Assembly: GCA_043725085.1 (NCBI GenBank) | Contig: JAYSLY010000014.1 | Span: forward strand, 2,748-66,747 | Direction of reading: 5' to 3' | DNA: 64,000 nucleotides | Origin: a bacterium | GTDB taxonomy: Bacteria; Patescibacteriota; Minisyncoccia; Moranbacterales; UBA2206 | Shown: positions 24,098-45,264 of the stretch, one piece after another | Numbering within the stretch: position 1 is the first letter of the stretch | How the letters are laid out: every line of letters begins with the position of its first letter | Made by a program: the position numbers and the translations under genes | Notes under the pieces: model-generated | What the model was told of the DNA's origin: nothing | The model's database searches: none | The model's input: the letters and a program-made list of their open reading frames with translations, nothing else

Positions 24098-26779
24098 CTA
24101 AACTATTTTCCGGTCAAGCTTTTTTTGTTTGCGCCTCTTTTTCCAGTCATAAACTAAATACCCAATGCACGCTAGCAATGTCGACAAAGATATCGCCAAG
24201 CCTATATAAAAAAGTCTCTGCGGCCAAAATTCCACCACCATTTCAAAATCATACGTCCCGTCGGGATTCCTAATACATTTAATATTGCCACCAGCACAAA
24301 CTTGATTTGTATCAATCACCCAAGAATTAGCATAGCCATTGGCTGTCAGATGATTGGCATTATTTTCAATCGGACGCCGAAACCAGGTCTCCCAAAAATG
24401 CCCGTTTGGCAAATTATCATTCTGAATTGTGCCTTGAAAATTTTTGGACACAAAGTCAATATTATATTTTTCCGCATAATCCAACTGCTCCTGCCCGCTT
24501 GCCCCGTGATCGTCAGCAGACGATTTTACGGGGTCGGCCCATTTTTTATGTTCGATCGTTTTTTCCTTTCCATCCCCCAGTGTCGTCACATAACCATTGT
24601 CAAGATCATTCTGCAATTCATCTTTTGTCGCCTGATCCTCCGCATTACCGTCTAATGTTTTATATTTGCTTAAGTTGTCATTCCCGCGTAGGCGGGAATC
24701 CACTCCTTGATTTACTAAATAGCTTTTCCATCCATCATGAAAACTTTCAGAAAATACTAGTGGGAAAACTCCGCTTGCACCATGCACCCGCACGCGATAT
24801 TTGGTCGGATTGATTTTTTTGAATTCCAAAGTTGGCGACACCACGCCACCTTTATCTACACAATTATTATTACCGGAATCACTGCTATTTTGATTATTAC
24901 TACTCTTTAATTTTTCCAGAACATTCTCTCGTCCAACATTTTGCCCTGCAAAGAATACTGCTGAACGAGTTTGCCAATCGGGGCTAGAAAGAATTTTTGG
25001 CAAGTCATCAATGGTTCTTTGTGAAATTATAGAATTTTGAGAAGTGTAAAAAAATGCAGCTTGCGAATTGTTTATCTTGTACACATTAAAGTAGCTGTTG
25101 TCTTCAATTTTTGTAATCAAATTGTTTTTTTCGTAATACTCAATCTTGCCCATTGTTTGTGCAACAAATTGATCTGCTACGTCTTTATGAAAAATAATAT
25201 ATTTAATACCCAGGAGATCAACAAAAGGAATAAGCCACCCGGAATTCTCTTCATTCTGCTCATTCCAGATCTTACCATAATTCCAGTTACCAAAAGCTTG
25301 TGGGGCATTCATTTGCACCACTGGTTGATTAAATAACTGGATAGTCGGATCAGATCCAATCGCTTTCCACTTGGGAAAATTAATCCAGCCGATAGAGTTA
25401 AGCACATTATAGGGGGCGCTAAAAAGTCTAAAGTCCAATCTTCTCATCGCCAATCTATTACTCAATGCATAATATTCGTCAGGAATTTTTACTATATAGG
25501 CGTACTCGCTTGATTTATAATCCTTACCAATATCGATACCCATATAATTAGTTAGCAGCTTACCCTGAAAAGCTGGATATAGCGGAACAGTGGTAAAAAA
25601 TAAAAACAAAACGCTAACAACATAACTAGTTTTTTTATTTTCAATACTCCCTAAAAACAGCAGGATTACAATGAGCATAAAAAATGGAAGAAAAATCAAA
25701 GTCTTGTCTAGACTTCGAATGGAAGAAAAAATCGGATTTCCGCCAAAAATTTCCATAACTGCCTCCTTACTTAAGATACCCTTGCCCTTGTTAATCAAAA
25801 AAATTGCAAAAAAAACCAAGCTAGCAAAAATAGCAACGATTTTAGTTTTTTCGTGTAAATGCTTTTTACGAATGGCAATGATAAAAAAAATAAAAAGAGT
25901 CATTCCGGGCAAAAGAGCAGCTATTGAATATATTTTCGTCATCCCCAAAATATCATCAGAAAAAAACCACAAACCCCTAAAGTCCAATGCCTGCCAGAAT
26001 ATCCATTCATCTAGATTAAAATAACCGCCGCCGCCAGAAAAATTACTAACCATATTGAGTAGCCCGGGTATCTGAGGAATAATAGCTATAAAGCTAGTTA
26101 AAAAGAAAAGACCATAAAAAATCAAAGCTTTTTTGAAAAATAAAACAAACTTTATAGTTTTTCTATGCAAAAACAACACCAGTAGCAAAAAGACGAACAA
26201 AAAGATGTTTAGGGATATAAAAAAAGCCGCATTACCGAAAGCAATATTTGCAACAAACAAAACTATGCCCAAAATCGACAAGTTCACATCAATCAGCTTG
26301 CTTTTTAAGAAATACTTATAAGTCAAAGCAAAAATTGGCGGAATAACTAAATAAAGAAAAGAGAATGGCGTAGGAGAAATAAATTTATTAAAAGTGTAAA
26401 TATTCAATGCATAAGTAAAGGAAAGCACATTGATAATAAATTCTTTTTTAGCAGAAAAAAAAGCTCTAGAAAATATTCTAAAAGATAAGAAGCTGCTCAA
26501 TAAAAAAAAGGCTGAATAAAAAATGAGAATGTGATTTACCCCTACTATTTCCTGAATAATCGCAAAAAAAATAAAATAAGGAAAATAGCTGAATAGAATA
26601 GAAAAACCGCCAAGTCCATAACTTGCCCAATTATATTTTAGAGTTTCCAGGACAAAAGAAAAATTTAGGATCTGAGCAAAATCGCCACTTAAAAAAATAT
26701 ACCCAGCTGGAATATTATTAGCAATGCTGATAGCAAAAATTGCAAACAAAAAAATATAGGTATTTTTCCGCAAAATCAT
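24098..26779 (-). CDS. very large polytopic membrane protein (possible GT-C/YfhO-like) with C-terminal TM anchor
   Basis: The 893-aa ORF has many TM helices and the same C-terminal TM-plus-basic-tail architecture (...YLVYDWKKRRKQKKLDRKIV) as 20496..22763. Confidence 0.4.
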   Translation of the reverse strand: MILRKNTYIFLFAIFAISIANNIPAGYIFLSGDFAQILNFSFVLETLKYNWASYGLGGFSILFSYFPYFIFFAIIQEIVGVNHILIFYSAFFLLSSFLSFRIFSRAFFSAKKEFIINVLSFTYALNIYTFNKFISPTPFSFLYLVIPPIFALTYKYFLKSKLIDVNLSILGIVLFVANIAFGNAAFFISLNIFLFVFLLLVLFLHRKTIKFVLFFKKALIFYGLFFLTSFIAIIPQIPGLLNMVSNFSGGGGYFNLDEWIFWQALDFRGLWFFSDDILGMTKIYSIAALLPGMTLFIFFIIAIRKKHLHEKTKIVAIFASLVFFAIFLINKGKGILSKEAVMEIFGGNPIFSSIRSLDKTLIFLPFFMLIVILLFLGSIENKKTSYVVSVLFLFFTTVPLYPAFQGKLLTNYMGIDIGKDYKSSEYAYIVKIPDEYYALSNRLAMRRLDFRLFSAPYNVLNSIGWINFPKWKAIGSDPTIQLFNQPVVQMNAPQAFGNWNYGKIWNEQNEENSGWLIPFVDLLGIKYIIFHKDVADQFVAQTMGKIEYYEKNNLITKIEDNSYFNVYKINNSQAAFFYTSQNSIISQRTIDDLPKILSSPDWQTRSAVFFAGQNVGRENVLEKLKSSNNQNSSDSGNNNCVDKGGVVSPTLEFKKINPTKYRVRVHGASGVFPLVFSESFHDGWKSYLVNQGVDSRLRGNDNLSKYKTLDGNAEDQATKDELQNDLDNGYVTTLGDGKEKTIEHKKWADPVKSSADDHGASGQEQLDYAEKYNIDFVSKNFQGTIQNDNLPNGHFWETWFRRPIENNANHLTANGYANSWVIDTNQVCAGGNIKCIRNPDGTYDFEMVVEFWPQRLFYIGLAISLSTLLACIGYLVYDWKKRRKQKKLDRKIV

Positions 26780-27534
26780 TATTTTCTACTTATTGAAATT
26801 AAAACCGGACGATTTTTTTTAGGGGACGCTCCTTGGGATATGAAAAAAATATACCAAACCAAATCGACTAATCGAGTGATCGCTGGCAACACAATCTTTT
26901 TTAGCACTTTCTTTAATAACTTGTTATCATTAGGCGCATAGGCAACTAATTCTTTTATCATAATATTTTTCGGTTTAAATCCTGCCAGAAGCAATATCTC
27001 TTGCATGGATTCTGGAGTATACAATATTTCGTGTGTTATATCGACATAGCGATCATGACTTCCGCTTATCGCGTTATTTCCATTGGGAATATTAATAATC
27101 AGCACTCCGTCTTTTTTCAATGAACTCTTTAATATTTTTAAGAAACTTATTATTTCTTCTTTTTTAATATGCTCGACAACATGATAAATTGTAATCACAT
27201 CAAAAAAATCATTCTTTCCTTTTAAATACTCCTCTGCTAAAACTTTTTCCACGTGGAAACCTTTTTTTTCGCAAAAAGCGATACACTCAGAAGAGATATC
27301 AATTCCCGTAAAATTTTTATAGCCTAATCGAGAGAAAGTGTATAGATTTTGGCCCAATCCGCACCCAATATCTAAAATTCGACTGTTTTTGTCCCTTGGC
27401 AGATGACTGCCAACATATTTCTTGTTCCAAAAATAAAGATTGGCATACTCCTTCTCGATATTCGCATTTCGATCTGATGAGGAGTAGACCACTGACATAT
27501 AATTTTCGAATATTTCTCTTTCCATAGTAATCAC
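26779..27534 (-). CDS. class I SAM-dependent methyltransferase
   Basis: Motif I (ILDIGCGLGQ) and an acidic post-I residue are present in a 251-aa ORF. Confidence 0.75.
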   Translation of the reverse strand: MITMEREIFENYMSVVYSSSDRNANIEKEYANLYFWNKKYVGSHLPRDKNSRILDIGCGLGQNLYTFSRLGYKNFTGIDISSECIAFCEKKGFHVEKVLAEEYLKGKNDFFDVITIYHVVEHIKKEEIISFLKILKSSLKKDGVLIINIPNGNNAISGSHDRYVDITHEILYTPESMQEILLLAGFKPKNIMIKELVAYAPNDNKLLKKVLKKIVLPAITRLVDLVWYIFFISQGASPKKNRPVLISISRK

Positions 27535-27549
27535 GAGGTATTAAAAAAA

Positions 27550-28455
27550 TTAATTTATTTTGTGCAAGATCGAGTAGAAAATCAATCCCCTGTTCGGAAA
27601 TATCTTTTTTAGAAAATCGAGTTTTTTGCTTTTTTTCAAATAATTACACGTACCATATTCGAGAATTCCAAAATTGGGCAAACACTCTTTTCTAACTTTT
27701 TGAAAATCAATGCCGCCCCTAGCCACATGGATGTCAATAATTCCAAAAATTTCATCAAGTTTCAACTCATGCCCTATTACTCCCTCCTTTAACAATTGAT
27801 CATTTATTTTTTGGCAGATTTTCTTATACTCATTTTCTCCGGTCAACTTGCTAAATTTGTCATATAGGCCTAATTTCAAAACTAAGTCAAAACAAGCATC
27901 CTTCGGACTGATTATAAAGTTAATCATTTTAAGCAAGACAGATCTGCTGGCCTTATAGTTTGGCTCATGCGCAACCATCAAAATTCCATCCTTCTTCAAT
28001 AATCGATCAAATTCTCTTAGTACTTTTTTATAATCTGGCAGATGATGCAAAACAGAATTCACGGTTATGGCATCAACTGAGTTACTTGGAATTTCTGACA
28101 TAGTATCGGAATCTATTTTAATATACTCAAAATTAACCGTAAAAACTTGGGAAAATTTTTTCTTACAAATTTCTAGTTTTTCTCTTGAGATGTCAACTAG
28201 TTTCATTTCACTGCCATCAGCGAGATAATCTAGCATCACAGAAGGAACAAAACCGGTGCCAGCACTAAAATCCAAAACTACCATAGCGCCTTTGCCTGAA
28301 AAATATCTCTTTGACCATTCTTTCCAATTCATTGCTTCGTCAACGAAAATTTCATCATGAATATTATCATATTCATTGCCCTCAAGATCACTAAATAACT
28401 CGTTTACTCTTTTTACCAAATTAGCAGATACCTCTTTCTTTGCCATAATTTTCAT
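27550..28455 (-). CDS. class I SAM-dependent methyltransferase
   Basis: It has the motif VVLDFSAGTG and a downstream VDAITVNSVLHHL block. Confidence 0.7.
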   Translation of the reverse strand: MKIMAKKEVSANLVKRVNELFSDLEGNEYDNIHDEIFVDEAMNWKEWSKRYFSGKGAMVVLDFSAGTGFVPSVMLDYLADGSEMKLVDISREKLEICKKKFSQVFTVNFEYIKIDSDTMSEIPSNSVDAITVNSVLHHLPDYKKVLREFDRLLKKDGILMVAHEPNYKASRSVLLKMINFIISPKDACFDLVLKLGLYDKFSKLTGENEYKKICQKINDQLLKEGVIGHELKLDEIFGIIDIHVARGGIDFQKVRKECLPNFGILEYGTCNYLKKSKKLDFLKKIFPNRGLIFYSILHKIN

Positions 28456-29584
28456 TTATAAGTTTAACATATTTCCCCGTAATTAATTCGGGACTGAAAC
28501 ATTTAGCGAAATATTCACGCTGAAGAGCTGTTTTTACTTTAGCCTCGGCATAATTTTCAATAATTGCGTCTATTTTTTCCATAAACTCATTCTCATCATT
28601 CTGACTCGTGACAACATTATCATAATCAGAAAATGTCCTAATATACTCCGCTACTCCACAATTCCTTGTTATAATCGTTGGCGTTCCAAGAGTAATGGAT
28701 TCTACTGCGGTATAGAGGAATGACTCAAACTGTGATGGCAGGATGACCAATTTTGCATTCTTAATAATGGGATGAAGTCTTCCTTTTTCTCCAATATAGC
28801 CCAAGAAAATTACCCTATCATTCCCCTCGAAGAACCCAGACATGCCTTCGCAATCTCTTCCAACAATTACAAAGAGTGCTTCTGGATATCCAATCATTAT
28901 TCGCTCTATTATTCTTTTCAGGATAGCGCTACCTTTCTTTTTCTGCAAACTCCCATAGAAAAGAAAATAATCCTTTCCCACCAACTTCTCTGGCAAAATA
29001 CCACACTTAGTCTCATGCTTTTCTAATGTTATTGGAAGAGGAAGGATGCTCATTCTGGAAAAATCAATATTCCAGAGAAAGAATGAATATACCCCCATCA
29101 AAGAAGAGTTTGCAATAATCAACCTAGCTCTTTTTACAATAAACTTCTCAAATAAATTCAAAACAGTTCTGAAGATAAGATATTTTAGACTATTTTTTCT
29201 TTCCAAAGAATAAACTTCATGGCTTGTGCCATGCAGTCGAGCAATATATTTGTATTTTTTTCCTAAAATCATTTTAGCAAAAACCGCATAACCGCCAAAA
29301 ATTTCATCTTCTATTAAATCATATTTTCTATAGTTTCTCAGCAGCCACCAGGAAATAGCCCAATAGACCCCAAGAGGATTATGGCGATTGGCCTTCACAC
29401 GTATCACTTCAATATCCTCCTCTCGAGTCCTTTTGCTTTTCTCGAAAGAAACACTCAAAACAGAAACTTCCATAACTTGATTATGACGCTTTATGGCCTT
29501 CGCCATTTCGTACACGTAAGTTCCGATCCCGCCCGCCCCTGTTTCGGGTGGATATTCAGGGGAAATAAAGAGAATATTTTTCAT
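28421..29584 (-). CDS. glycosyltransferase (GT4/GT1, GT-B fold)
   Basis: It has a GT-B N-terminus (MKNILFISPEYPPETGAGG) and a C-terminal EGFG-type region. Confidence 0.7.
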   Translation of the reverse strand: MKNILFISPEYPPETGAGGIGTYVYEMAKAIKRHNQVMEVSVLSVSFEKSKRTREEDIEVIRVKANRHNPLGVYWAISWWLLRNYRKYDLIEDEIFGGYAVFAKMILGKKYKYIARLHGTSHEVYSLERKNSLKYLIFRTVLNLFEKFIVKRARLIIANSSLMGVYSFFLWNIDFSRMSILPLPITLEKHETKCGILPEKLVGKDYFLFYGSLQKKKGSAILKRIIERIMIGYPEALFVIVGRDCEGMSGFFEGNDRVIFLGYIGEKGRLHPIIKNAKLVILPSQFESFLYTAVESITLGTPTIITRNCGVAEYIRTFSDYDNVVTSQNDENEFMEKIDAIIENYAEAKVKTALQREYFAKCFSPELITGKYVKLINENYGKERGIC

Positions 29585-29589
29585 AGCTA

Positions 29590-31071
29590 TTATTTTCTAT
29601 TAACTACAAAATTCCACGCGTATTTTTCAATTGGAAATCTGTAAATATTATTCCTCAAAACAAACCCGAGCCACTTATTAGCAATTTTTCTGATATTTCG
29701 AGAAACTACCCCGAGATTGCCACGAAGGTTCATGGTGCCGATATAAAGATAGAGAAAAAGATTAAGTGTGTCGACATACTCCGGATTCTCCAGCCAAGGC
29801 ATTTCTTTTGTCTTGCACATATTGCCGATTGTATCATCAGAAAGTTCCGCAATCCATTCCTCATTGCTTGTCGGAATCTTGAATCCATATTCTTTTGCAT
29901 CCTCAATCAATGGCGATCCAGGGTAGGGACGATAAAGTTGCGGACCAAAAATTTTAGCATTAGGATTTTCATCAAGAAGTCTTATAATAAAATCTTTTGT
30001 CTTCAAAATCTCTGCGTAAGTTTCACCAGGTATTCCAATAATGAAAGACAAACCGATTTTAATCCCGGCTTCTTTGCACATTCGATTAGCTTTTTCAATT
30101 TCAGCAACGGTAATATTTTTGTTTAATAAATTCAGAACTCTTTGACTGCCACTTTCTGCGCCAAGATCCAGCTCAATGCAGCCCTCTTCTTTTAAGATCT
30201 TCAGAAACTCCATATCCACAACTGTTTCAAAGAGATTAGCTCTGATATTTGCAAACCAATAAAATTTCAGGTTTTTTTCTTTTTTCATTCGAATAAACTC
30301 CCGCACTCTTTGAATGGATCCAAAGAAAAATTCATCCCCAATATTAAAGTATCTAATATCATATTTTTGGATAAGTGCCTCAATCTGAGAAACAAACTCG
30401 CCCATATCCATCGCCCGCCACGTTCTGTTTTCTGCAACATTGATACAGAAACGGCATTTATACGGACAGCCAACCGAGGAAATAACATCGGCAAAACGGA
30501 CAAGCTGACTCCCATTTAAACTATTTCGTCGGTAGCCGTCAATATTTAGAAGATTGTACGGAAAAGACTTTAAGGAATACGTTTTTGATTTAACCTCCGG
30601 ATTAATTCTTACCCGTTCTCCGTCATGAAAGCAAATTCCATCGACATTCTTCCAATCCCTACCATCCGTAATTCGCTCAAATATTTCGGCTACGGTTTCA
30701 TGCCCTTCTCCGAGAACTCCAGCATCGACTTGAAAAATTTTTGCAATTTGCTCTGGAAATAGAGTAACATGGGAACCACCCCAAATAATTAGACTATTTG
30801 GAGAATTTTTTTTTATCTGCTCACTAATCATAATTGCTCTCTGAAGGTTATGAGTCATCACCGAAAGACCCACCATTTTTGGTTTGAAATTTTGGAAATA
30901 TTTACCTATTTGATTTAGGAAATCTCCATCAACTGCTTCATCATAAATATCCACAGTAACATTGCGAGCAACAAGGCTTCCAGCAACAGCTAAAATCCCC
31001 AGCGGCATAACGGCATTACCACTCCCTGGGACAACATTGCTGATATTTATCAATAAACATGTATTAGTCAT
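29590..31071 (-). CDS. B12-binding domain radical SAM enzyme
   Basis: An N-terminal cobalamin-binding-like Rossmann domain is followed by the radical SAM motif CPYKCRFC. Confidence 0.8.
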   Translation of the reverse strand: MTNTCLLINISNVVPGSGNAVMPLGILAVAGSLVARNVTVDIYDEAVDGDFLNQIGKYFQNFKPKMVGLSVMTHNLQRAIMISEQIKKNSPNSLIIWGGSHVTLFPEQIAKIFQVDAGVLGEGHETVAEIFERITDGRDWKNVDGICFHDGERVRINPEVKSKTYSLKSFPYNLLNIDGYRRNSLNGSQLVRFADVISSVGCPYKCRFCINVAENRTWRAMDMGEFVSQIEALIQKYDIRYFNIGDEFFFGSIQRVREFIRMKKEKNLKFYWFANIRANLFETVVDMEFLKILKEEGCIELDLGAESGSQRVLNLLNKNITVAEIEKANRMCKEAGIKIGLSFIIGIPGETYAEILKTKDFIIRLLDENPNAKIFGPQLYRPYPGSPLIEDAKEYGFKIPTSNEEWIAELSDDTIGNMCKTKEMPWLENPEYVDTLNLFLYLYIGTMNLRGNLGVVSRNIRKIANKWLGFVLRNNIYRFPIEKYAWNFVVNRK

Positions 31072-31085
31072 ACTCTTTTAACTTT

Positions 31086-31622
31086 TTACGTTGTTGATTC
31101 TGCTAATTTTTGTTTTTTAGAAAAATAGCTGGTCACAAACTCAAAAAAACCAAAAATAATAACTGAGTAAACCAAATCGCCAGCGATAGTGTTTCTAAAG
31201 AATGGGATTGCCATCATAAAACACGTCTCCAGTCCAGCGAGTGTTTTAGGATACCAGGAAGTAAAAATCCAAACCGATGCATTAGTAAACAGAAAGAAAA
31301 TTACCGAGCTAATAATGGACACAACGATCAAGATATACCACCTTTTATGATTTGAATAGACTCGTCCCAATAAAAAGGTCGCCAAAAAACACAAATACAC
31401 AAAAAACATTAATTTTATATCATAAAGTCCAATAAATAAATCACTAATAAATAATGCCAAAAATGGGACAATAAGCCAGCGATATTTCTTCATATAGCAC
31501 CCAGAAAATAATGCCATAGCAGTAATAGGAGTAAAATTAAGTGGGTGCTTTATCAATCTAGCGCTGGCCAAAAGCAAAATAACACCAATGATTATTATCC
31601 TGTCTAAATATTTCTTACTCAT
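31086..31622 (-). CDS. hypothetical polytopic membrane protein
   Basis: The 178-aa ORF has 4-5 TM helices; no family was recognised. Confidence 0.3.
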   Translation of the reverse strand: MSKKYLDRIIIIGVILLLASARLIKHPLNFTPITAMALFSGCYMKKYRWLIVPFLALFISDLFIGLYDIKLMFFVYLCFLATFLLGRVYSNHKRWYILIVVSIISSVIFFLFTNASVWIFTSWYPKTLAGLETCFMMAIPFFRNTIAGDLVYSVIIFGFFEFVTSYFSKKQKLAESTT

Positions 31623-33456: not shown

Positions 33457-34371
33457 TTATTTTCCCAAAGAATTTCTTAGTTTTCCGGTAAGAAAATACC
33501 ACATTCCGTCAAGAAATCCCTTCCAATAGAGTTTGATTAAGTCAAATCTTCTCTCCCGAAGCATCAAAATAGAATAGGTCAATGGCCAAAACCAGGAAAA
33601 AACTATCAGATATACAACTTTCTGATACCACTTGCCATAGCGAGAAACCATCACTGCCCTGTTTCGCATTAAGCAATAGGCTTTTTGCGTATACTGTCCG
33701 CCCAATGCCCTTGAACGCATGACATCATCCGAGCTAACGTCGTGATAAATCTTGGCCTTTTTTATTATTCCACATTTATAACCATACTTTCTAGCATTAA
33801 AAGCAAAGTCTGGTTCAGTGAAAGTCTGAATTAATTTTTCATCAAAAAGACCACATTCATCAAAAACTTTTTTTCTGATCAGAAAGGCGTTAGGAATGCC
33901 ATCACTCTCACAAACTGACCGACCTGCCTTATCAATCATTCCTGAAGTTTTTCCGGTTAATAAATTTATCCTCTGAAAATCCAAATACTTTTCCTTGGTG
34001 CTTAAATAATACATTGATGGACCAACTATACCATAAATTTTATTTCTTTGAGCAAAATCAACCAATTCATTCAGCATCTCCGAATCAAACACGTTGTCAT
34101 CATCAATAAACATCAGATACTCACCGATTGACTCCTTAACGCCAATATTCCGCGATTTAACCATCATTTTCTGTTTGACATTGTGAACAATTTTTATGTT
34201 AGAAAAATCAAAATCTTTAATCTCAAGTTTCTCGGTTCCATCATCAGAGCTATCATCAACAATTATCAGTTCCCACTCTAGCTTTTTAAAATTAGATCGG
34301 CGTACCGATTCAAGACACCTAATCAGATCCTTTTTTCTATTTCTTGTTGTTATGATAATTGATAGATCCAT
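33457..34371 (-). CDS. glycosyltransferase family 2
   Basis: It has the GT-A N-terminus (LSIIITTRNRKKDLIRCLESV) and a DDD-type motif (FIDDDN). Confidence 0.75.
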   Translation of the reverse strand: MDLSIIITTRNRKKDLIRCLESVRRSNFKKLEWELIIVDDSSDDGTEKLEIKDFDFSNIKIVHNVKQKMMVKSRNIGVKESIGEYLMFIDDDNVFDSEMLNELVDFAQRNKIYGIVGPSMYYLSTKEKYLDFQRINLLTGKTSGMIDKAGRSVCESDGIPNAFLIRKKVFDECGLFDEKLIQTFTEPDFAFNARKYGYKCGIIKKAKIYHDVSSDDVMRSRALGGQYTQKAYCLMRNRAVMVSRYGKWYQKVVYLIVFSWFWPLTYSILMLRERRFDLIKLYWKGFLDGMWYFLTGKLRNSLGK

Positions 34372-34880: not shown

Positions 34881-34882
34881 CA

Positions 34883-36992: not shown

Positions 36993-38033
36993 TTATTTAT
37001 TCAACCTCATTTCTTCTTGCAAGTCCGCTTCGGCCATAATCTTGACCAACTCTTTGAATTTTGTTTTTGCGCTCCAGCCAAGCTGTGTTTTAGCTTTGGT
37101 CGGATCGCCAATTAACAGGTCGACTTCCGCCGGTCGGAAATATTTCGGGTCAATCTCGATGATTACTTTTCCGGTTTTTTTATCGATGCCTTTTTCATTC
37201 ATATCTGCTCCTCTCCACTCCAAATCAAACCCTAAATGCACCGCTGTTTCTTCAATAAACTCTCGCACCGTGTGCGTTTCTCCCGTTGCCAAAACATAAT
37301 CATCCGGTTTTTCTTGTTGGAGCATAAGCCACATTCCTTCGACATAGTCTTTAGCATAGCCCCAATCTCTTTTAGCATTGATATTTCCCAGATAGAGTTT
37401 TTCTTCCAAGCCCAATTTAATCCTTGAGAGTCCCCGCGTGATTTTCCTGGTCACAAAAGTTTCCCCGCGCCTTGGCGACTCATGATTAAACAAAATTCCA
37501 TTACAAGCAAACAAATCATAACTCTCTCTGTAATTAACAGTAATCCAGTAAGCATAAATTTTAGCACAAGCATAAGGCGAACGCGGATAAAAAGGAGTAG
37601 TTTCCCGCTGAGGAATCTCTTGGACTTTTCCATACAGCTCGCTGCTTGATGCTTGATAAAATTTGGTATTAATGCCTGTCTCTTTTATAGCATCCAGAAG
37701 TCTAAGTGTCCCTAGGCCCGTAACATCTCCGGTATATTCAGGTATGTCAAAACTAACCCGAACATGTGATTGCGCTGCAAGATTATATATCTCATCCGGC
37801 TTTATCTTTTCAATAATTCGAGAGATATTACTTCCATCAGACAAATCGCCATAGTGCAAAAAAAGTCGTACTCCATTAATGTGAGAGTCTTCATAGAGGT
37901 GATCAATTCTTTTCGTGTTGAAAGTTGAGGCACGACGGATTACTCCATGTACCTCATAGCCTTTTTCTAAAAGCAACTCCGCCAAATATGACCCATCCTG
38001 TCCTGTTATTCCTGTTATTAATGCTTTTTTCAT
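36993..38033 (-). CDS. gmd: GDP-mannose 4,6-dehydratase
   Basis: It has the Gmd N-terminus [30 protein letters not shown]. Confidence 0.9.
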
Positions 38034-38160: not shown

Positions 38161-38688
38161 CTATTTATCCCTCACCACCATCCCGCCAGCCAACGTTTTT
38201 TGATTCAGCGCTTTTTCGATTCGTTCCAGCTTAGCTTCAATTTGTTTTCTCCAAGATAAATCCCAACCCTTCTTTTCGTAATTTTCTTCCAGATCTTTTC
38301 TGAGCCTTTGCAAGTCATCTTCGATGTGCGAAAGATAATCAAGAATTTGAGCTTGTCCGGATTTCAGATCTGACACATCTACTTTCAAAACAGACACATC
38401 GGATTTTAGGTCAGCTACATCAGTTTTCAGAATAGAAACATCAGATTTCAAAACTGACACATCAGATTTTAGAATTGACACGTCGGATTTGAGAACAGAA
38501 ATATCTGCCTCCATATGATCCATCTTCCCCTCCATGCGATCCATACGATCATCCAATTTACCAATAGACCGATCCAATCCTTGATGCCCTTCTGCTATCA
38601 ATTTCATATCACTCCGCATATCTTCCAGCAGAATTGTTAAGTAGTCCTTCTTTCTATCCTCTTCTTTTTTAGCTTTTTTTATTGCCAT
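38161..38688 (-). CDS. small coiled-coil protein with seven tandem heptad repeats
   Basis: The repeat (I/V)SVLKSDVS x7 is encoded by 21-bp tandem DNA repeats at ~38380..38510. Its N-terminal ~45 aa is homologous to ORF 47730..48140. Confidence 0.5.
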   Translation of the reverse strand: MAIKKAKKEEDRKKDYLTILLEDMRSDMKLIAEGHQGLDRSIGKLDDRMDRMEGKMDHMEADISVLKSDVSILKSDVSVLKSDVSILKTDVADLKSDVSVLKVDVSDLKSGQAQILDYLSHIEDDLQRLRKDLEENYEKKGWDLSWRKQIEAKLERIEKALNQKTLAGGMVVRDK

Positions 38689-38727
38689 AAACTTAAGTTA
38701 AGATTCGTAACCGGCATTTTTCCATTA

Positions 38728-38761
38728 TAGCACATCCTGGCTATTGCTTCCAATTTTCCCG
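38728..38761. repeat. 34-bp direct repeat copy 1 (TAGCACATCCTGGCTATTGCTTCCAATTTTCCCG)
   Basis: It is identical to 40207..40240, and the pair flanks the AlbA_2-domain gene. Confidence 0.85.
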
Positions 38762-38800
38762 CCAAAAAAGTATTTCGACTCCTCATCCGATCCGCCACTT

Positions 38801-40195
38801 TTAGGACTGCAAAACCTCCCAATGTCCGCCTTTGTCCGGACCAATTCTTTTGATTATACCTTTCTCCTTTAACACACTAAGATTCCATTCAACTCCTCTT
38901 CGGCTAAGACCGGTTTTCATTATCAGCTCTTTTGTGGTAATAGCAGGAGCTTCCCTGATCATATCGACTATTTTCTCCACAGTTTTCTCCACAGTTTTCT
39001 CCCTAGCTTTCTCTCCAAATTCTTTACTCAAAATAGTAAACCTAAAACCTCCGGAACTCTCTTCGATTAAAGGCTCAGCCAGTCCATATTCTTTTATTTG
39101 TTCAATAGCCCGCTTAACCCCGCTGCCGTATCTTTCAATCAATCCAGCATCACGAAAAATTTCCGCTACCAGTTTGTTGCGTGGTTTCGATTCACGTTTT
39201 CCCTCCTTAACATCTTCAATGGTAAAATCAAAAGGCAACCAACCACTATTCCAAAGCACGAGCTTGTCAAAATAAACTCGAAATTGGGAATGAGTCCCTT
39301 CTTGATAATCCCGATGAATGATCGCGTTGATCACTATTTCTCGGATAGCGTCAATGGGATATTGCCACCTTTCTTCCCGTTGTGGACGACCGGTTATAAT
39401 AAATTCTTTCAAGATATACGTCTTGATAAAATCCATCACTTCATCCGCCTCGCTAATTAAATCCTGCCGAATTATTTTGTTTTTCTTAATCGTGATATCA
39501 TCCTGGAATAAGCCTATTTGGATATCGGTTTGCCGAGAAGGAACTTTTGAAAATAACAGCAAACTGGCATTGGCTGGATAGTCATTACCATCTTCTTCCA
39601 CTATTAAAGAATATTTGCGCAAAAAATTGAAAGCACCACCCAAATCAATCCCTAGATTGCTTTCGATCATACCCTTGACTTTCTCAATTTTTTCCAAATC
39701 TAAATCATCCAAACTTTTTTCTTTATTGGGATAAAAATCCCAACTGGAGTTTTTTGTCCGCAGATACATCTCGGATATTTCCTGCAAAGTCAAAAGATGA
39801 TTACCATTATTTTTTCGCAAATAAAAACGCCCCTTGAAAGACACGGGCTTCAAGGGAAATTCAGCTACCTCAAAAATAACAACCGTTTTATTGTCAATTA
39901 TTCGATTTTCGATTTCAACACTCAGAAAGGGTTGCGTTTTACTTCTGATTTCGCTAGCCCAAGACCCAATACTCTCCCGATTCAAGTCTATGCCCTTAAT
40001 TTTTCTATTATCGGATACGCCAATAATCACCACCCCGCCTCGATGATTCGCCATAGCAACCAAGCTGATAATTACCTCATCGGAAAAAGATGATTTCAAT
40101 TCAACATTCACACTCTCCCCGTTTTTTATCAGTTCTTTTATTGTTTTTGTGTCCATAAACCAAAATAAAAAATCAGCCAGTAGCTTTTCTTTCAA
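38801..40195 (-). CDS. AlbA_2 (Schlafen-like 'divergent AAA') + HATPase_c_4 + C-terminal wHTH putative nucleic-acid-binding ATPase/regulator
   Basis: The 464-aa ORF shows the RecG-C-terminal-like/AlbA_2 N-domain pattern (VELKSSF...ANHRGGVVIIGV), an HATPase_c_4-like middle region, and a C-terminal winged HTH (ITTKELIMKTGLSRRGVEWNLSVLKEKGII). Confidence 0.6.
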   Translation of the reverse strand: MKEKLLADFLFWFMDTKTIKELIKNGESVNVELKSSFSDEVIISLVAMANHRGGVVIIGVSDNRKIKGIDLNRESIGSWASEIRSKTQPFLSVEIENRIIDNKTVVIFEVAEFPLKPVSFKGRFYLRKNNGNHLLTLQEISEMYLRTKNSSWDFYPNKEKSLDDLDLEKIEKVKGMIESNLGIDLGGAFNFLRKYSLIVEEDGNDYPANASLLLFSKVPSRQTDIQIGLFQDDITIKKNKIIRQDLISEADEVMDFIKTYILKEFIITGRPQREERWQYPIDAIREIVINAIIHRDYQEGTHSQFRVYFDKLVLWNSGWLPFDFTIEDVKEGKRESKPRNKLVAEIFRDAGLIERYGSGVKRAIEQIKEYGLAEPLIEESSGGFRFTILSKEFGEKAREKTVEKTVEKIVDMIREAPAITTKELIMKTGLSRRGVEWNLSVLKEKGIIKRIGPDKGGHWEVLQS

Positions 40196-40206: not shown

Positions 40207-40240
40207 TAGCACATCCTGGCTATTGCTTCCAATTTTCCCG
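40207..40240. repeat. 34-bp direct repeat copy 2
   Basis: It is identical to 38728..38761 and overlaps the last 7 codons plus the stop of the GT2 gene 40220..41254. Confidence 0.85.
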
Positions 40241-41254
40241 GCTCATTTCCGCTTGATTGAAAATTCCCGCCACTTTCCCCCAGCCATAGACGAAAAGTGT
40301 CACCCAGCAAGCGGGAACGTGAAAAAACCAGGCCAAATCCCTTTTGCGCTTGTAGCCGATGAGAGCTTGTCCAAGCAAGGGGAAAATGAAGATGGTATAA
40401 AAAATAAATTTCAAAAGGCCAAGAGACGATTCTCCGCCAATCTCGAATTTGCTCCAATCAAAAACGCGGGATTTGTTTTTTTTGTGAAAAGTATAATCTT
40501 TGATCCGTCTTTGTTGTTTTCTGATAAATTTACCAAAATCCGCTTCGCAAAAGGTGTGAATGATACCTACCTTGACTTTGGCAATATGAATCAACCCTTT
40601 TTCGGCGATTTCTTTGGCAATAACATCGATATCAAAAAGATACTTTCCCGTGTTAATTTCTTGCAAAAAAGCAGTGCGAAAGATTGTTCCATTTGCTCCA
40701 ACTGTCGGAATTCCCGCCTTGGTCAGTTTTATCTTAAGATATCCTGCAAAATCTTCTTCTTCGTGTGGCACAGCGGTCCATTTTTTGGTGAGATAATTCC
40801 AACGATCATAGTTACCCAAAAAAAGGCACACCGGATCATTCATCCCGATGAGCGCGCAGTAACGCTCAATGTAGCCGCCTTCTAAGCGGTAGGTATATTT
40901 GATTGGCTCAGATAGTTTTATTTCCGAATCAGAAAAAGGCGCAACCATTTTTCTAAGCCACCCCGAATCCGGCAAAAAATTATCCGAATCCAAAATCAGC
41001 ACCAATTCATTTTTTACCTCTTTGAGCGCAACCGCCTTGCCGGATTCTCCGGTTTTGAGCGGATTGGAAAAAACCCGTCCGCCATATTTTTTAGCAATCG
41101 CGATAGTTTTGTCAGTTGATCCGCCATCACCGACAACCAATTCGATCCGGTCTTGGGGATAATCTTGCGAAGTCAGGCGCTTGAGACATTCCTCGAGCAC
41201 TGCCTCGGCATTGAGCGTCGCCATGCAAACACTGATTTTTGGTAGATTTTCCAT
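40220..41254 (-). CDS. glycosyltransferase family 2 (Dpm1/ArnC-like)
   Basis: It has the GT-A N-terminus (ISVCMATLNAEAVLEECL; VVGDGGSTD) and a C-terminal TM region. Confidence 0.75.
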   Translation of the reverse strand: MENLPKISVCMATLNAEAVLEECLKRLTSQDYPQDRIELVVGDGGSTDKTIAIAKKYGGRVFSNPLKTGESGKAVALKEVKNELVLILDSDNFLPDSGWLRKMVAPFSDSEIKLSEPIKYTYRLEGGYIERYCALIGMNDPVCLFLGNYDRWNYLTKKWTAVPHEEEDFAGYLKIKLTKAGIPTVGANGTIFRTAFLQEINTGKYLFDIDVIAKEIAEKGLIHIAKVKVGIIHTFCEADFGKFIRKQQRRIKDYTFHKKNKSRVFDWSKFEIGGESSLGLLKFIFYTIFIFPLLGQALIGYKRKRDLAWFFHVPACWVTLFVYGWGKVAGIFNQAEMSRENWKQ

Positions 41255-41274
41255 CTATTTCTTATGCCTTGATT

Positions 41275-42276
41275 TTACTTATCATACCCATTCGGATGCC
41301 CCGCATACCATTTTTTCAAACTTTCCACGCTCTCGGCGATACCTTTTTTGGAATGCCACTTGAGAATTTTTTGCGCCTTTTTGGGATTGGCAAAAATATT
41401 GGCGTATTCCCCTTTTCTAGCCTTAGCCTTTTTCTTTTTTAATTTTATTCCGAAATTCTTTTCCACTTCATTTACAATTTCTTTGACTGAATAGCCCTTG
41501 CCATTGCCCAGGTTGAACACTTCGCTTTTTCCACCTTTTTCCAAATACTCATAGGCGGCGAAATGCGCCTCAACCAAATCTTCCACGTCGATATAATCGC
41601 GAATCGGTGTGCCATCGGGCGTTTTTACTTTGGCACAAGTGAAGGCAAATGGCTCGATTCCCATTGCCCCGCGCACAGCATTTTGCACCAAAAGCTGAGA
41701 CGGTTTTTTACTGTCTCCGATTATGCCTGAAGTGGCTGCGCCACAAATATTGAAATAGCGCAAAATCACATGTCGAATCCCGAAAGCTTCATACCAGGGC
41801 AGCATTTTCTCTACCAATAGCTTTGATTCGCCATAGGGATTGATCGGATCTTGCGGATGCGCTTCATCGACTGGCAAATATTTGGTCTCGCCATAGGTCG
41901 CGCAAGTTGAAGAAAAAATGATTTTCCCGACTTTGTGCTTTTTCATTGCTTCCAAAAGGTTGAGGCTCCCCAAAACGTTGTTGTCAAAATATAGCCCCGG
42001 GTTTTCCATCGACTCGTTCACGAGACAAAGCGCGGCAAAATGCAAAACTCCATCAATTCTATGTTTGCGGAAAACTTTTTCAATGTCCGCTTTGTTTCTC
42101 AAATCACCTTCCACAAAATCTAGCTTACCAATCTTTTTCAGAATGTTAATCGGCTCGCGAAAGCCACGAAACAGATTATCAAAAACCACCACGTCGTAGC
42201 CCTTTTCCAGGAATAACTTAACGGCGTGAGAGCCGATATATCCCGCGCCGCCGGTGATTAGTATTTTCTTTTTCAT
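41275..42276 (-). CDS. galE: UDP-glucose 4-epimerase
   Basis: An SDR N-terminus ([14 protein letters not shown]) and the YxxxK catalytic dyad are present in a 333-aa ORF. Confidence 0.85.
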
Positions 42277-43211
42277 AGAGTTATTCCTCGAAAATATTCA
42301 ATTGTCTTTTTTAGTCCCTCTTCCAATTGAATTGTCGGCTCCCAGTCCAATTCTTTTTTGGCGAGAGAGATGTCCGGTTTTCTTTGTTTTGGATCGTCTT
42401 GTGGCAAATCTTTGAAGATAATTTTACTCGTACTTTCCGGAATCATCGCAATCACTTTTTCGGCTAATTCTTTGATAGTAAACTCGACCGGATTGCCAAT
42501 GTTTACCGGCCCGACAAAGCCATTTTCATTATTCATCATCTTGGTCATCCCGGCAATCAGGTCGTCAACATATTGAAAGCTGCGTGTTTGCATTCCGTCG
42601 CCATAGATTGTGATATCTTCATTTTTGAGCGCTTGCACAATGAAATTTGAAACGACGCGCCCATCATGCGGATGCATATTTGGTCCATAAGTATTGAAAA
42701 TTCTGATCACGCGAATAGGCAAATTGTGCTGCCTGTAGTAGTCAAAAAAAAGAGTTTCAGCACAACGCTTGCCTTCGTCATAGCAAGAGCGGATTCCAAT
42801 CGGATTGACGCGCCCCCAATAACTTTCCACTTGCGGGTGCACTTCCGGATCGCCATAGACTTCCGAAGTGGAAGCCTGCAAGATTTTGGCTTTGGTTCTT
42901 TTGGCGAGTCCAAGCATATTGATCGCGCCATGCACGGAAGTTTTGGTTGTTTGAACCGGATCAAATTGATAGTGAATAGGAGAAGCCGGGCAAGCTAGAT
43001 TGTAGATTTGATCAACTTCAACGTAGAGTGGAAAAGTAACATCGTGACGCATAAATTCAAAACGCTTATTCTCCATCAAATCAAGGATGTTGTTTTTGTT
43101 CCCTGTGAAAAAATTATCCGCACAAATCACTTCATTCCCCTCCGCAAGAAGTTTACGACAAAGATGCGACCCGATAAATCCCGCACCACCCGTTACTAAG
43201 ATTTTTTTCAT
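42273..43211 (-). CDS. UDP-glucuronate decarboxylase (UDP-xylose synthase)
   Basis: It carries the UXS/ArnA-decarboxylase-type SDR signature ([16 protein letters not shown]...ADNFFTG) in a 312-aa ORF. Confidence 0.8.
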
Positions 43212-43225
43212 AGTATTTTTATTAT

Positions 43226-43771
43226 TTAATCAAATTTAACTTCTACTCTTTTTTTGAGATACTTTTCATAATTTTGCGGACTGTTGATGTAGTAAATGTC
43301 AAAATTGTGTTTTATGCGATAGACTATGGAATAGGACTTAATTGGCGTTTCATCAATAACAACATCAGCGCACAAATGGAAAAAAAGTCCTAGAGCAAGA
43401 CTCAAAAAAATTGTTTTCGCATATTTATTTCTGAGTAGCAGTGTTAATAGCACGAGGATTATAACATACTCCCAACCGTGAAACAAAACGTAAATTTTCC
43501 CCGATTTCAAAAATTGATAGCCATTTTTGAAATATTCCCAATTCCAATTCCAACCAAAAGCCAGATAATAATCAATAAAGTGGTCAAGATCAACTAAAAA
43601 ACCTCCGATAATACCAAAGGTGAAAGCTAAAAACGGTTTTTTCCAAATTCGCCAAACAATCCCTCCAGCCAGCAGACTGAAAAATATATGAATAGAGAGA
43701 TGTGTAGGCAGCGATAGAATCATAGAAAAAAATTTATCAGCATTCTTCTTTTTTTGATTTAGAAAAATCAA
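43226..43771 (-). CDS. membrane-bound metal-dependent hydrolase-like protein (YdjM/DUF457-like)
   Basis: A polytopic membrane protein carrying LPTHLSIH and DLDHFID motifs. Confidence 0.4.
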
Positions 43772-45212
43772 TCATCTTTCCCAGCCATTTCCAACCAGCC
43801 ATAAACAGGAATTTGATATCGGCAAAATTTCTGATGGAAATTACTTTCCGCCAGATAAACTGCGGGCTGGCAAAAGATTTATACAGTCCTTGCACGAGAT
43901 TTTTTGCTTCTTGCGAACTGATCTGGGATTTCATTACCATTTCTCTTTGATCATAATGAGCATAATCCTTAGTAAGCAATAAATCGTTTTCTTGGCAGTA
44001 TTTATGCAATGGCGTTCCAGGATATGGAATAGTAATTGTACCTTGCAAAGTGTCAACGTAGCCTTTTTTGAAAAGTGTTGCAGCGAGGTTGATCGTCCGC
44101 TCAGCCATTTCCTTTGTCTCCCAAGGATAGCCAATCATAGCGGTGATATGCGGCTCGAGTCCGGCATCTTTGCAAAGTTTCAGCCCCGGCTCAATTTCCT
44201 CAACTTTGAGATTCTTATCAATCCGATCGAGTGTTTCTTGATTAGCCGATTCAAGGCCAAAAAGCACAAAGCGGAAACCGGCTTTTTTCATGAGCGCCCA
44301 AATTTTTGGATCGCGAATTCCGGTGATGCGCATATTGCAACTCATGGTAATTTTTTTGTTGTACCCGCGCGCAATCATGCCATTGCAAAATTCCTCGAGC
44401 CACTGCCCGATCGGAAGCGATCCGGAATCTTCCATAATTTCGCGCGCACCCAATTTGATCAGATTTCCCACTTCGTCAAGTGCTTTCTGAGCCGACATAG
44501 TACGGAAATTTTTCCCCGGAAAAAGAATGGTCCAAGCACAAAAAGTGCACCTTCCCCACCAACAATCTCGCCCGCTCATCATATATGCTCCGGGAGTATA
44601 TTTGAAATTACCATTTTTATACGCATAGAGTTTCCATTTTGTCAGCTCTCGATCAATGAGAGGCAAGCTATTGAGATCATGTTTGGACAAATCAGCCGGA
44701 CCGGAATTGGTAACTTTTCCCTCTCCATTGCGAAACCAAAATCCACCCTCCAAAGCTTCGCCGGTTTTCAAATGATTCGCTAGATTTAGAAGCATAAAAT
44801 CATAATCACCACTGGCAATCACAAAATCTGCAAGCGAATTTTGCATCGACTCCTCGGGAAATGCCGTGACATGATCGCCCATAAGCACTATTTTTGTCTT
44901 GGGAAGTTCTGTTTTTAGTCTGGCAATAACATCCCAATGCATCTTGATGACAGGGGTTTTCGTTTCGAGCGCAATAAGCTCCGGCGCTTCAGTCACAATT
45001 CTTTTTTTCCAAGCTTCAAAACTCAAACCTTCAGCGATACCTTCGTCCCAAAACACATCATAGCCCTTCTTTTTAAGCAAGGATGCGGCATAGGCCGGAA
45101 TGACCGGATAGATATAGGTTGGGGTGCTAAACCATTGGAATTGACGATTTTGACCAAGACAAGCAATACCCTTATTTGATTTTAGGGGCGGATAGGAAAT
45201 AGCGATTTTCAT
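43737..45212 (-). CDS. B12-binding domain radical SAM enzyme
   Basis: An N-terminal B12-binding-like domain precedes the radical SAM motif CWWGRCTFC. The start was set at MKIAISYPP to avoid overlap with rnc. Confidence 0.75.
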   Translation of the reverse strand: MKIAISYPPLKSNKGIACLGQNRQFQWFSTPTYIYPVIPAYAASLLKKKGYDVFWDEGIAEGLSFEAWKKRIVTEAPELIALETKTPVIKMHWDVIARLKTELPKTKIVLMGDHVTAFPEESMQNSLADFVIASGDYDFMLLNLANHLKTGEALEGGFWFRNGEGKVTNSGPADLSKHDLNSLPLIDRELTKWKLYAYKNGNFKYTPGAYMMSGRDCWWGRCTFCAWTILFPGKNFRTMSAQKALDEVGNLIKLGAREIMEDSGSLPIGQWLEEFCNGMIARGYNKKITMSCNMRITGIRDPKIWALMKKAGFRFVLFGLESANQETLDRIDKNLKVEEIEPGLKLCKDAGLEPHITAMIGYPWETKEMAERTINLAATLFKKGYVDTLQGTITIPYPGTPLHKYCQENDLLLTKDYAHYDQREMVMKSQISSQEAKNLVQGLYKSFASPQFIWRKVISIRNFADIKFLFMAGWKWLGKMIDFSKSKKEEC

Positions 45213-45264
45213 AATTATTTGATTAATTAATTTTCCGTAAAAAGCCGCTTTATGGCTCCTCAAG

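Follow-up and report, generated by a model that had tools for sequence, protein, structure and literature searches.

The 18.5-kb stretch described here lies on a contig of Candidatus Moranbacteria (Parcubacteria group of the Candidate Phyla Radiation, CPR), inside a 64-kb window (the whole stretch of DNA that was analysed), and carries sugar nucleotide and glycosyltransferase (GT) genes together with the genes of two radical S-adenosylmethionine (SAM) proteins, designated rSAM1 and rSAM2, and of a DUF6580 membrane protein. All genes between 23 kb and 48 kb of the window are on the minus strand, which applies to every feature given below for this region. The genes listed in the earlier note were present (Pfam, NCBIfam), and their identities bore out its description of a glycan biosynthesis region with decoration genes; the DUF6580 gene (31086-31622) was missing from that list. 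Instead of the single locus and pathway that had been proposed, we found two modules. Module A (40220-45212) encodes, in this order, rSAM2, a small membrane protein, a UXS-like short-chain dehydrogenase/reductase (SDR), GalE and a family 2 glycosyltransferase (GT2), while the twelve genes of module B (24098-38033) run gmd, fcl, GT4, acetyltransferase, GT2, AsnB, DUF6580, rSAM1, GT4, methyltransferase, methyltransferase, membrane protein. The two modules are split by the genes at 38161-40195, which encode a coiled-coil protein (38161-38688; Pfam) with a 43% identical homologue in the locus of a sister genome (L006) and a winged-helix protein with Schlafen AlbA_2, HATPase_c_4 and HTH matches (38801-40195; Pfam) that has no counterpart there. 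Overall, we consider it fairly probable (roughly 60%) that the stretch represents two adjacent surface-glycan modules, A being conserved and B being strain-specific, with the DUF6580 protein serving rSAM1.

Module A was kept across Moranbacteria and Parcubacteria. At 90% identity, rSAM2 fell into a cluster of 7 members and the product of the flanking RNase III gene (rnc) into a cluster of 24, all named members of both clusters coming from Moranbacteria or Parcubacteria metagenome-assembled genomes. The four proteins of module B for which this was checked (Gmd, AsnB, DUF6580 and rSAM1) were all singletons at the same threshold. The sister locus encodes an rSAM2 that is 91% identical, as well as orthologues of the small membrane protein, the UXS-like SDR, GalE and the GT2 at 40220 (68-89% identical); no genes for AsnB, DUF6580, rSAM1 or either methyltransferase were found in the 18.5 kb of this locus that were read. 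The GC content was 0.32-0.36 across 26-36 kb compared to 0.38-0.43 in most of the remaining window, and this low-GC segment corresponds to the part of the locus that is strain-specific. Based on the listed starts, intergenic distances in module B were between -35 and +15 nt, except for a 67-nt overlap at the acetyltransferase gene, the true start of which probably lies downstream of the listed TTG. Because of this tight spacing from gmd (38033) to the gene of the 893-aa membrane protein (24098), module B was read as one operon. A single 18-kb operon spanning both modules was also considered and was rejected because the two halves are unlike in conservation, GC content and synteny. Counts from a promoter and terminator scan were at chance level (59 vs 58.7; 22 vs 15.3) and were not used.

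The rSAM1 gene (29590-31071) encodes a radical SAM enzyme with class B features (Radical_SAM, 86 bits; B12-binding PF02310, 64 bits with a cut-off of 32.1). Its cluster motif CPYKCRFC is of the canonical CX3CX2C type, a spacing shared by 119 of 120 family members. When searched by itself, the N-terminal segment of 190 aa matched TokK (7e-6) and TsrM (8e-4) in their cobalamin domains, with GG.H and GEG aligned, and in an alignment of 48 family members G68, G98, G99, H101 and G121 were invariant and G123 and E124 nearly so. GxSxM, GG.H and GEGE are thus conserved or nearly conserved in the family; GxSxL-like, Gly-Gly and Gly-Glu are the cobalamin-tail motifs in the structures of OxsB, TsrM and TokK (PMC9204698). 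When the family profile was compared to the PDB, OxsB was the best match (1.7e-34), together with TsrM and TokK, and both the cobalamin and the core domain were covered. Similar to class B methyltransferases of the TokK, TsrM, GenK and Fom3 type, rSAM1 therefore combines a Rossmann cobalamin domain with GxSx(L/M), GG.H, GE and CX3CX2C motifs. It differs from them in its scores, the best being 126 bits against curated cut-offs of 250-750, and in its setting, which is that of glycosyltransferase-rich polysaccharide loci and not of clusters for antibiotics or for ribosomally synthesised and post-translationally modified peptides.

This setting is shared by its relatives. The closest full-length relative of rSAM1 was 45% identical and others were 28-36% identical (Omnitrophota, Elusimicrobiota, Lokiarchaeota and others), and across phyla the genes occurred in glycosyltransferase-rich loci: of 80 metagenomic loci, 58 carried GT4 genes (146 copies) and 20 carried SDR genes. 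Genes for GT2, class I methyltransferases, GtrA, UGDH, AsnB, acetyltransferases and deacetylases recurred as well. At least two paralogues with B12-binding and radical SAM domains (B12-rSAM) were present in 28 of the 80 loci, and natural fusions of an rSAM1-type protein to a UbiE-type methyltransferase domain were seen (P0005, P0060). B12-type radical SAM genes are therefore common in metagenomic glycan loci, and this genome is not alone in having them there; what is new here is the split of two "B12" enzymes into a canonical and a degenerate one, and the link between DUF6580 and cobalamin. A literature search found nothing relevant on the rSAM1 family or on B12-radical-SAM enzymes in CPR or polysaccharide clusters. 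Based on its motifs, its matches to TokK, TsrM and OxsB and its relatives in glycan loci, rSAM1 is credible, and most likely, as a cobalamin-dependent enzyme; its family is a widespread, uncharacterised group of B12-type radical enzymes associated with polysaccharide loci.

By analogy to known enzymes, the reaction of rSAM1 is most likely a C-methylation, as methylases make up the majority of the class B enzymes characterised so far (PMC9204698, PMC12931638). However, several points weigh against this assignment. Neither rSAM1 nor rSAM2 reached the cut-off of any curated subfamily, the best score of rSAM1 being that for ApyD (126 bits vs 750), and OxsB, the top PDB match of its family profile, is a non-methylase, as are BchE and HpnJ among the known class B enzymes (PMC9204698). 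The best NCBIfam matches also include BchE, HpnJ and the ladderane enzyme (approximately 112-122 bits; HpnJ TIGR03471 at 119.5 bits vs a cut-off of 577.6), while the AprD4 model NF033070 gave 65 bits against a cut-off of 500. An alternative explanation is that rSAM1 is cobalamin-dependent and catalyses a ring contraction, an epimerisation or the formation of a C-C or C-O bond on a sugar, as OxsB, BchE and HpnJ do for non-methylating chemistry, which would fit with two class I methyltransferases already covering methylation in the operon. We regard this as somewhat unlikely, as the N-terminal domain alone was closest to the methylases TokK and TsrM, and as the methyltransferase domains fused to such proteins or encoded next to them hint at methylation as a common theme, in a class whose characterised members are dominated by methylases.

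Directly upstream of rSAM1, the DUF6580 gene (31086-31622; PF20221, 158 bits) encodes a membrane protein of 178 aa and lies between AsnB and rSAM1, overlapping the former by 8 nt and ending 14 nt upstream of the latter. Its AlphaFold2 (AF2) model (mean predicted local distance difference test score, pLDDT, of 96.3) has the fold of an S-component of energy-coupling factor (ECF) transporters. The top Foldseek matches were BtuM with cyano- or hydroxocobalamin (8c7p, 8ovv; probability 1.00, template modelling score, TM, of 0.62), followed by the ECF S-components PanT, ThiT, FolT and RibU. A profile of 45 family sequences run against all PDB sequences had a sole match, 6fnp_A (E 3.6e-4, 23.6 bits), which is a 182-aa 'Membrane protein' chain in the entry of the cobalamin transporter ECF-CbrT and which we infer to be CbrT from its length and the composition of the entry. 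The single DUF6580 sequence found no match among the PDB sequences, and the profile found no BtuM chain at E<=10. Two independent methods thus have as their best matches two known cobalamin proteins of the S-component type, although each match is limited in a way that weighs against a transport role: the fold match to BtuM reached a TM of only 0.62 at 13-16% identity, and the profile match to the CbrT entry was weak and confined to the N-terminal half.

Compared to BtuM, a solitary S-component-like transporter (6FFV, 8C7P, 8OVV), the DUF6580 protein has the same fold and its family is co-located with genes for TonB-dependent receptors and adenosyltransferases, similar to BtuM, which is encoded beside btuB and btuR (PMC6072759). 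This co-location holds at the level of the family and not in the window, and the phyletic range of DUF6580 is far wider than that of BtuM, reaching from Proteobacteria and Bacteroidota to CPR. BtuM is defined by an invariant cobalt-ligating cysteine (Cys80 in T. denitrificans BtuM; PMC6072759), whereas no cysteine was invariant among 267 DUF6580 members, the position of residue 134 of the window protein being Cys in 75%, Ser in 19% and Ala in 6%. Membership of DUF6580 in the BtuM family was therefore rejected, as both sequence similarity and the invariant cysteine are absent. CbrT is similar to DUF6580 in length (approximately 180 aa) and is the putative identity of the only profile match (6FNP), but it binds cobalamin and cobinamide without transporting them when the ECF module is absent (PMC5997447), and no EcfA or EcfT genes are present in the window. 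At E<=0.001, the DUF6580 family has over 4,500 representative sequences, which are annotated publicly as "DUF6580 family putative transport protein" or as hypothetical, and a literature search returned no paper mentioning DUF6580.

The genomic neighbourhoods of the family were analysed in 80 DUF6580 loci from GTDB genomes with 3-kb flanks, which were scanned with Rfam at gathering thresholds and were drawn via a motif-selected subset, so that the counts are biased towards members of the RL[LVI]PH[PA]PNF type. A cobalamin-clan riboswitch was found in 33 of the 80 loci: 17 were upstream on the coding strand, typically followed by a TonB-dependent receptor gene and then DUF6580, and 15 were divergent and immediately adjacent. 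Five control loci (approximately 67 kb) had none. Genes for TonB-dependent receptors were present in 27 loci (23 of these with a riboswitch), a reductase with Ribonuc_red_lgC and TSCPD domains in 8 and a PduO-type cobalamin adenosyltransferase in 7; Peripla_BP_2 (6), DUF4430 (6) and B12-rSAM genes (3) were also located near DUF6580, and neighbour genes were confirmed with Pfam on representatives. We take the combination of Ribonuc_red_lgC and TSCPD to be the architecture of a class II, B12-dependent ribonucleotide reductase. A strict B12 feature, defined as a riboswitch, a class II-type reductase, an adenosyltransferase or a B12-rSAM gene within 3 kb, was present in 43 of the 80 loci and in 9 of the 13 from CPR. 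DUF4430 was kept out of this count because its profile found nothing credible among PDB sequences; we presume it to be transcobalamin-like, as we do for the first proteins of the L168 operon described below.

An association of this kind recurred in CPR, where four loci (L032, L050, L059 and L060) have operons that combine genes for a class II-type reductase and a PduO-type adenosyltransferase with an adenosylcobalamin (AdoCbl) riboswitch. B12-rSAM genes were neighbours of DUF6580 in L013, L037, L099, L103, L131, L167, L168 and L169. The three closest DUF6580 homologues looked up on long contigs (48-51% identical) were each paired with DUF4430 and located next to B12-rSAM genes, within sugar loci that carry NeuB, SDR, DegT, GT4 and UGDH genes; an AdoCbl-II riboswitch heads one of these three operons, and the closest homologue in a riboswitch-led operon was 48% identical. 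In L168 (3260-12561; Candidatus Staskawiczbacteria), an AdoCbl-II riboswitch heads an operon that contains DUF4430, DUF6580 and B12-rSAM genes in the order SQHop_cyclase-like/dockerin protein, 236-aa protein, DUF4430, DUF6580, HTH, SDR, B12-rSAM, SDR, DegT, TylF-like methyltransferase and NeuB; the arrangement resembles a unit for the capture and uptake of B12 that is joined to a nonulosonic acid pathway. The order DUF6580, GT4, rSAM was also found in three rSAM1-family loci.

It is quite probable that DUF6580 has a B12-related role, and in this operon the protein is probably a corrinoid uptake or binding component serving rSAM1, a function proposed from its modelled fold, the match to the CbrT entry, the riboswitches and the B12-related neighbour genes. 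The only ribonucleotide reductase encoded in the window is of the B12-independent class III (anaerobic NrdD, 58134-60365; radical SAM activase, 57068-57772), and a B12-dependent one is absent, unlike in many CPR loci with DUF6580. Several findings weigh against the proposed role. No cobalamin riboswitch was detected in the 64-kb window (Rfam), which also holds no DUF4430 gene and no ECF module, its sole ATP-binding cassette genes being ftsE and ftsX; 37 of the 80 DUF6580 loci lack a strict B12 feature within 3 kb; and DUF6580 genes were present in only 3 of the 80 rSAM1-family loci. The lack of a riboswitch in the window and the 37 loci without a strict B12 feature, together with the missing cysteine and the many specificities of S-component folds (PanT, ThiT, FolT and RibU were all matched), would also be explained if DUF6580 were unrelated to cobalamin, either as an S-component-like protein for another small molecule or as an accessory of glycan assembly, with its adjacency to rSAM1 being coincidental. 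This is unlikely considering that riboswitches occurred in 33 of 80 loci compared to none in the controls, that CPR loci repeatedly pair DUF6580 with the class II-type reductase and adenosyltransferase or with B12-rSAM, that both structure- and profile-based searches led to cobalamin proteins, and that a homologue nearly half identical lies in a riboswitch-led operon.

If DUF6580 does supply rSAM1, the earlier note's question of how a cobalamin enzyme obtains its cofactor in a window without cobalamin synthesis genes likely has its answer inside the operon. Such an uptake gene would explain how small-genome CPR bacteria feed B12-dependent enzymes, and it would give a testable function to a large domain family of unknown function. 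The wider claim is evenly balanced, namely that DUF6580 is a third family of S-component-type corrinoid transporters beside CbrT and BtuM, tied in CPR to the B12 enzymes that a genome retains, either a class II-type ribonucleotide reductase with an adenosyltransferase or B12-radical-SAM enzymes acting on surface glycans, with surface sugars being modified in a cobalamin-dependent manner. If it is correct, CPR surface sugars carry radical modifications that rely on scavenged B12, and the surface chemistry of these cells is tied to B12 made by other members of the community.

The second radical SAM protein, rSAM2 (43737-45212), whose ATG at 45212 is a start consistent with the family, combines a Radical_SAM domain (58 bits) with a B12-binding-like N-terminal Rossmann domain that scored 29.1 bits (E 9e-7) for PF02310, just under the cut-off of 32.1. 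It belongs to a conserved CPR-wide family, with 6604 homologues at E<=1e-10, the best 120 of which share 67% identity or more. The earlier note had placed both proteins in the B12-binding class; this is supported for rSAM1, given its 64 bits and its tail motifs, and is not supported for rSAM2. Its cluster motif CWWGRCTFC (44538-44564, residues 217-225) has a non-canonical CX4CX2C spacing, and CWWG[RK]C[TAS]FC was found in all 121 family members; this spacing also occurs in a solved structure, that of the queuine lyase 6P78 (CIWGKCSFC). The cobalamin-tail motifs are replaced in a manner conserved among the family members read, GxSxM by ALETKT, GG.H by [LMI]GDH (MGDH in the window) and GEGE by GD[YF]D. 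Neither the N-terminal 200 aa nor the family profile matched any solved cobalamin domain by sequence. The AF2 model (pLDDT 91) nevertheless has a five-stranded Rossmann-like N-terminal domain, so that the fold the earlier note had asked for is present. In the same domain, residues 14-32 in the loop between strand 1 and helix 1 form a pattern, KG...QNRQFQW..PT, that is invariant across 62 family members and sits at the position of the 'His loop' of class B enzymes.

The best Foldseek match of rSAM2 was AprD4 with its aminoglycoside substrate (TM 0.72/0.78), followed by OxsB, MgmA, TsrM, CysS and TokK, and AprD4 binds no cobalamin (PMC12931638). Clustering with non-methylating families, which the earlier note had named as evidence against methylation, was what we found: the best curated hidden Markov model (HMM) was HpnJ (TIGR03471; 156.7 bits vs a cut-off of 577.6, E 9e-46, residues 73-459), BchE also being among the best, and both enzymes are non-methylases (PMC9204698). 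Because of the replaced motifs, the fold match to AprD4 and these best HMMs, sequence comparison does not support the label of a class B methylase for rSAM2. We regard it as a radical enzyme of a sugar pathway whose dependence on cobalamin is doubtful (about one in three). Its site is probably degenerate, and the annotation "B12-binding radical SAM" need not imply cobalamin.

The earlier note's interpretation was that rSAM1 and rSAM2 alike are class B enzymes that depend on cobalamin and C-methylate one heavily decorated glycan. Each protein does have a Pfam B12-binding match at E<1e-6 together with a radical SAM core, the homology of the two families extends to both domains (hhalign), and the model of rSAM2 superposes on OxsB, MgmA, TsrM, CysS and TokK, in a class where methylation is the usual reaction. 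We nevertheless consider this improbable, given the CX4CX2C motif and the family-conserved tail replacements of rSAM2, its failure to find a solved cobalamin domain by sequence, its best matches to a cobalamin-free fold and to non-methylase HMMs, and the location of the two genes in separately conserved modules.

A more plausible alternative, although still short of even odds, is that rSAM2 is a cobalamin-independent radical sugar enzyme, either a 1,2-diol dehydratase like AprD4 or a ring-contracting enzyme like HpnJ and Cds, acting on the product of a GT2 partner, a nucleotide- or lipid-linked sugar, in an envelope pathway found across CPR. The structural match to AprD4, the apramycin 1,2-diol dehydratase (PDB 6FD2), is nearly full-length and includes the Rossmann-like N-terminal domain; the two proteins differ in that they are only 15-16% identical, that rSAM2 has the CX4CX2C motif and that it is encoded among GT2, SDR and flippase genes and not among aminoglycoside genes. 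The likeness to HpnJ and Cds consists of the best curated HMM and of the pairing of rSAM2 with a conserved GT2 in CPR loci. HpnJ, which takes part in forming the cyclitol ether of hopanoids, acts downstream of a glycosyltransferase in the hpnI-hpnK-hpnJ pathway, and Cds is calditol synthase. Unlike in the setting of HpnJ, no hopanoid genes were found in the window or in the rSAM2 loci read. For HpnJ and Cds, a ring contraction of a lipid-linked hexose has been proposed, neither mechanism having been shown in vitro (PMC13459092).

Gene order argues for such a partnership. In five other CPR loci, the order flippase, GT2 (approximately 311 aa), optional SDR, GT2 (approximately 335 aa), rSAM2 and small membrane protein recurred (complete in L004, L170 and L171, partial in L005 and L006), and an orthologous GT2 (331-337 aa, 46-70% identical mutually) immediately precedes rSAM2 in L004, L006, L170 and L171. 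Several points speak against a cobalamin-independent rSAM2, however. No orthologue of this GT2 partner is present in the window, where rSAM2 directly follows the RNase III gene, and no AprD3-like reductase partner was identified; the scores are far below the cut-offs of the HpnJ model (157 vs 578) and the AprD4 family (NF033070, 33.4 vs 500). Moreover, the N-terminal domain of rSAM2 is homologous to that of rSAM1 (hhalign probability 100%) and has the invariant QNRQFQW loop, so that it may still bind cobalamin.

Returning to the two-module reading, the proposed working is as follows. In module B, Gmd and Fcl would supply GDP-fucose, and the GT4, GT2 and GT4 enzymes would assemble an oligosaccharide that may be decorated by O-acetylation (acetyltransferase), carboxylate amidation (AsnB), O- or N-methylation (the two class I methyltransferases) and the radical step of rSAM1. 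The uronic acid for amidation by AsnB could come from ugd elsewhere in the window. In the rSAM1 reaction, a 5'-deoxyadenosyl radical would abstract a hydrogen from the sugar and the methyl group would be delivered by methylcobalamin, with DUF6580 taking up or handing over the corrinoid, which the genome is presumably unable to make. The 893-aa membrane protein encoded at the end of the operon may then act as transferase or polymerase of this glycan. Module A would act as a conserved CPR envelope-sugar unit in which rSAM2 performs another radical reaction, likely cobalamin-independent and resembling that of a dehydratase or a rearrangement enzyme. Gene identities, motifs, folds, conservation and neighbourhood statistics were observed directly, and from them we infer the substrates, the types of reaction, the binding of cobalamin and a transport function of DUF6580.

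The glycan genes that surround rSAM1 were assigned as follows. The variable operon opens with Gmd, a GDP-mannose 4,6-dehydratase (36993-38033; TIGR01472, 600 bits with a cut-off of 415), which is abutted with zero gap by Fcl, the GDP-L-fucose synthase (36063-36992; NF047922, 491 bits with a cut-off of 500). These are followed by a GT4 (34883-36070; Glycos_transf_1, 75 bits) with a 73% identical orthologue in the sister locus, a left-handed beta-helix O-acetyltransferase similar to WcaF and WbbJ (34380-34949; Hexapep, 58 bits; NF007797 of the WcaF family, 95 bits and below the cut-off) and a GT2 (33457-34371; Glycos_transf_2, 94 bits). Downstream of rSAM1 by 5 nt lies a second GT4 (28421-29584; Glycos_transf_1, 73 bits), followed by two class I SAM methyltransferases, one UbiE-like (27550-28455; Ubie_methyltran, 65 bits) and one matching Methyltransf_23 (26779-27534; 63 bits), the latter having a 40% identical homologue directly upstream of the closest rSAM1 homologue (L001). 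The operon ends with the 893-aa polytopic membrane protein (24098-26779), whose gene shares 1 nt with the methyltransferase gene before it. Its N-terminal two-fifths are hydrophobic by sequence, its large C-terminal part is extracytoplasmic, and it had no Pfam or NCBIfam match; a function as glycan transferase or polymerase is possible.

The AsnB-type glutamine-dependent amidotransferase (31615-33456; Asn_synthase, 276 bits; GATase_7, 150 bits) begins with MCGILG, so that the Cys2 nucleophile is present, and has the expected architecture of an Ntn glutaminase and a C-terminal Asn_synthase domain. Homologues were found in 5 of the 80 rSAM1-family loci and in L003. Both domains and the N-terminal cysteine are shared with AsnB amidotransferases of polysaccharide loci, while the score for the XrtA-system amidotransferase model TIGR03108 was below its cut-off (475 bits vs 817). 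We take its proposed role to be akin to uronamide formation of the WbpS type. A point against a role in decoration is that the protein passed the generic asparagine synthase model TIGR01536 (467 bits vs 267), which means that it may be a housekeeping asparagine synthetase.

In module A, the small polytopic membrane protein (43226-43771) has approximately 165 aa if the ATG at 43723 is its start, a weak YdjM match and no NCBIfam match, and orthologues 45-68% identical were located beside or near rSAM2 in L004, L006, L170 and L171. The UXS-like SDR (42273-43211; Pfam GDP_Man_Dehyd and Epimerase) is of the UDP-glucuronate decarboxylase/4-keto-pentose synthase type, scored 125 bits and below the cut-off for the NCBIfam UDP-4-keto-pentose/UDP-xylose synthase model, and has 69-89% identical orthologues in the rSAM2 loci L005, L006 and L170. 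GalE, a UDP-glucose 4-epimerase (41275-42276; TIGR01179, 356 bits with a cut-off of 262), and the GT2 with C-terminal hydrophobic segments (40220-41254; Glycos_transf_2, 67 bits) have orthologues in L006 that are 87% and 86% identical, respectively, and the matches of this GT2 to PDB sequences were confined to the generic N-terminal GT-A part.

Further glycan genes were located at 10308-22763, encoding LPG_synthase_TM, GT4, Ugd, an ArnC/PgfS-like GT2 and two PMT_2 GT-C proteins, with large proteins lacking a Pfam match at 15174-16844 and 20496-22763 among them; this set points to polyprenyl-phosphate-sugar donors and extracytoplasmic glycosylation. The UDP-glucose 6-dehydrogenase gene ugd, which the earlier note had counted as part of the locus, is real (12428-13762, minus strand; three UDPG_MGDP_dh domains; TIGR03026, 446 bits with a cut-off of 190) but lies outside the stretch.

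A few other elements were observed. A RhuM-family gene (23043-24098) shares 1 nt with the last gene of the glycan operon and has no counterpart in L006, and in two of the CPR DUF6580 loci group I introns were found beside tRNA genes (L028, 3132-3364; L059, 6077-6323). The window also contains a diversity-generating retroelement on the minus strand (50673-53216), which consists of a reverse transcriptase gene (RVT_1; 50673-51671), an open reading frame (ORF) of 126 aa without Pfam match (51765-52145), and a 222-aa target ORF (52548-53216). A 107-nt repeat is present as a template copy (52105-52211) and as a variable copy (52593-52699) in the 3' end of the target ORF, and all 15 mismatches within it are at adenines of the template copy.

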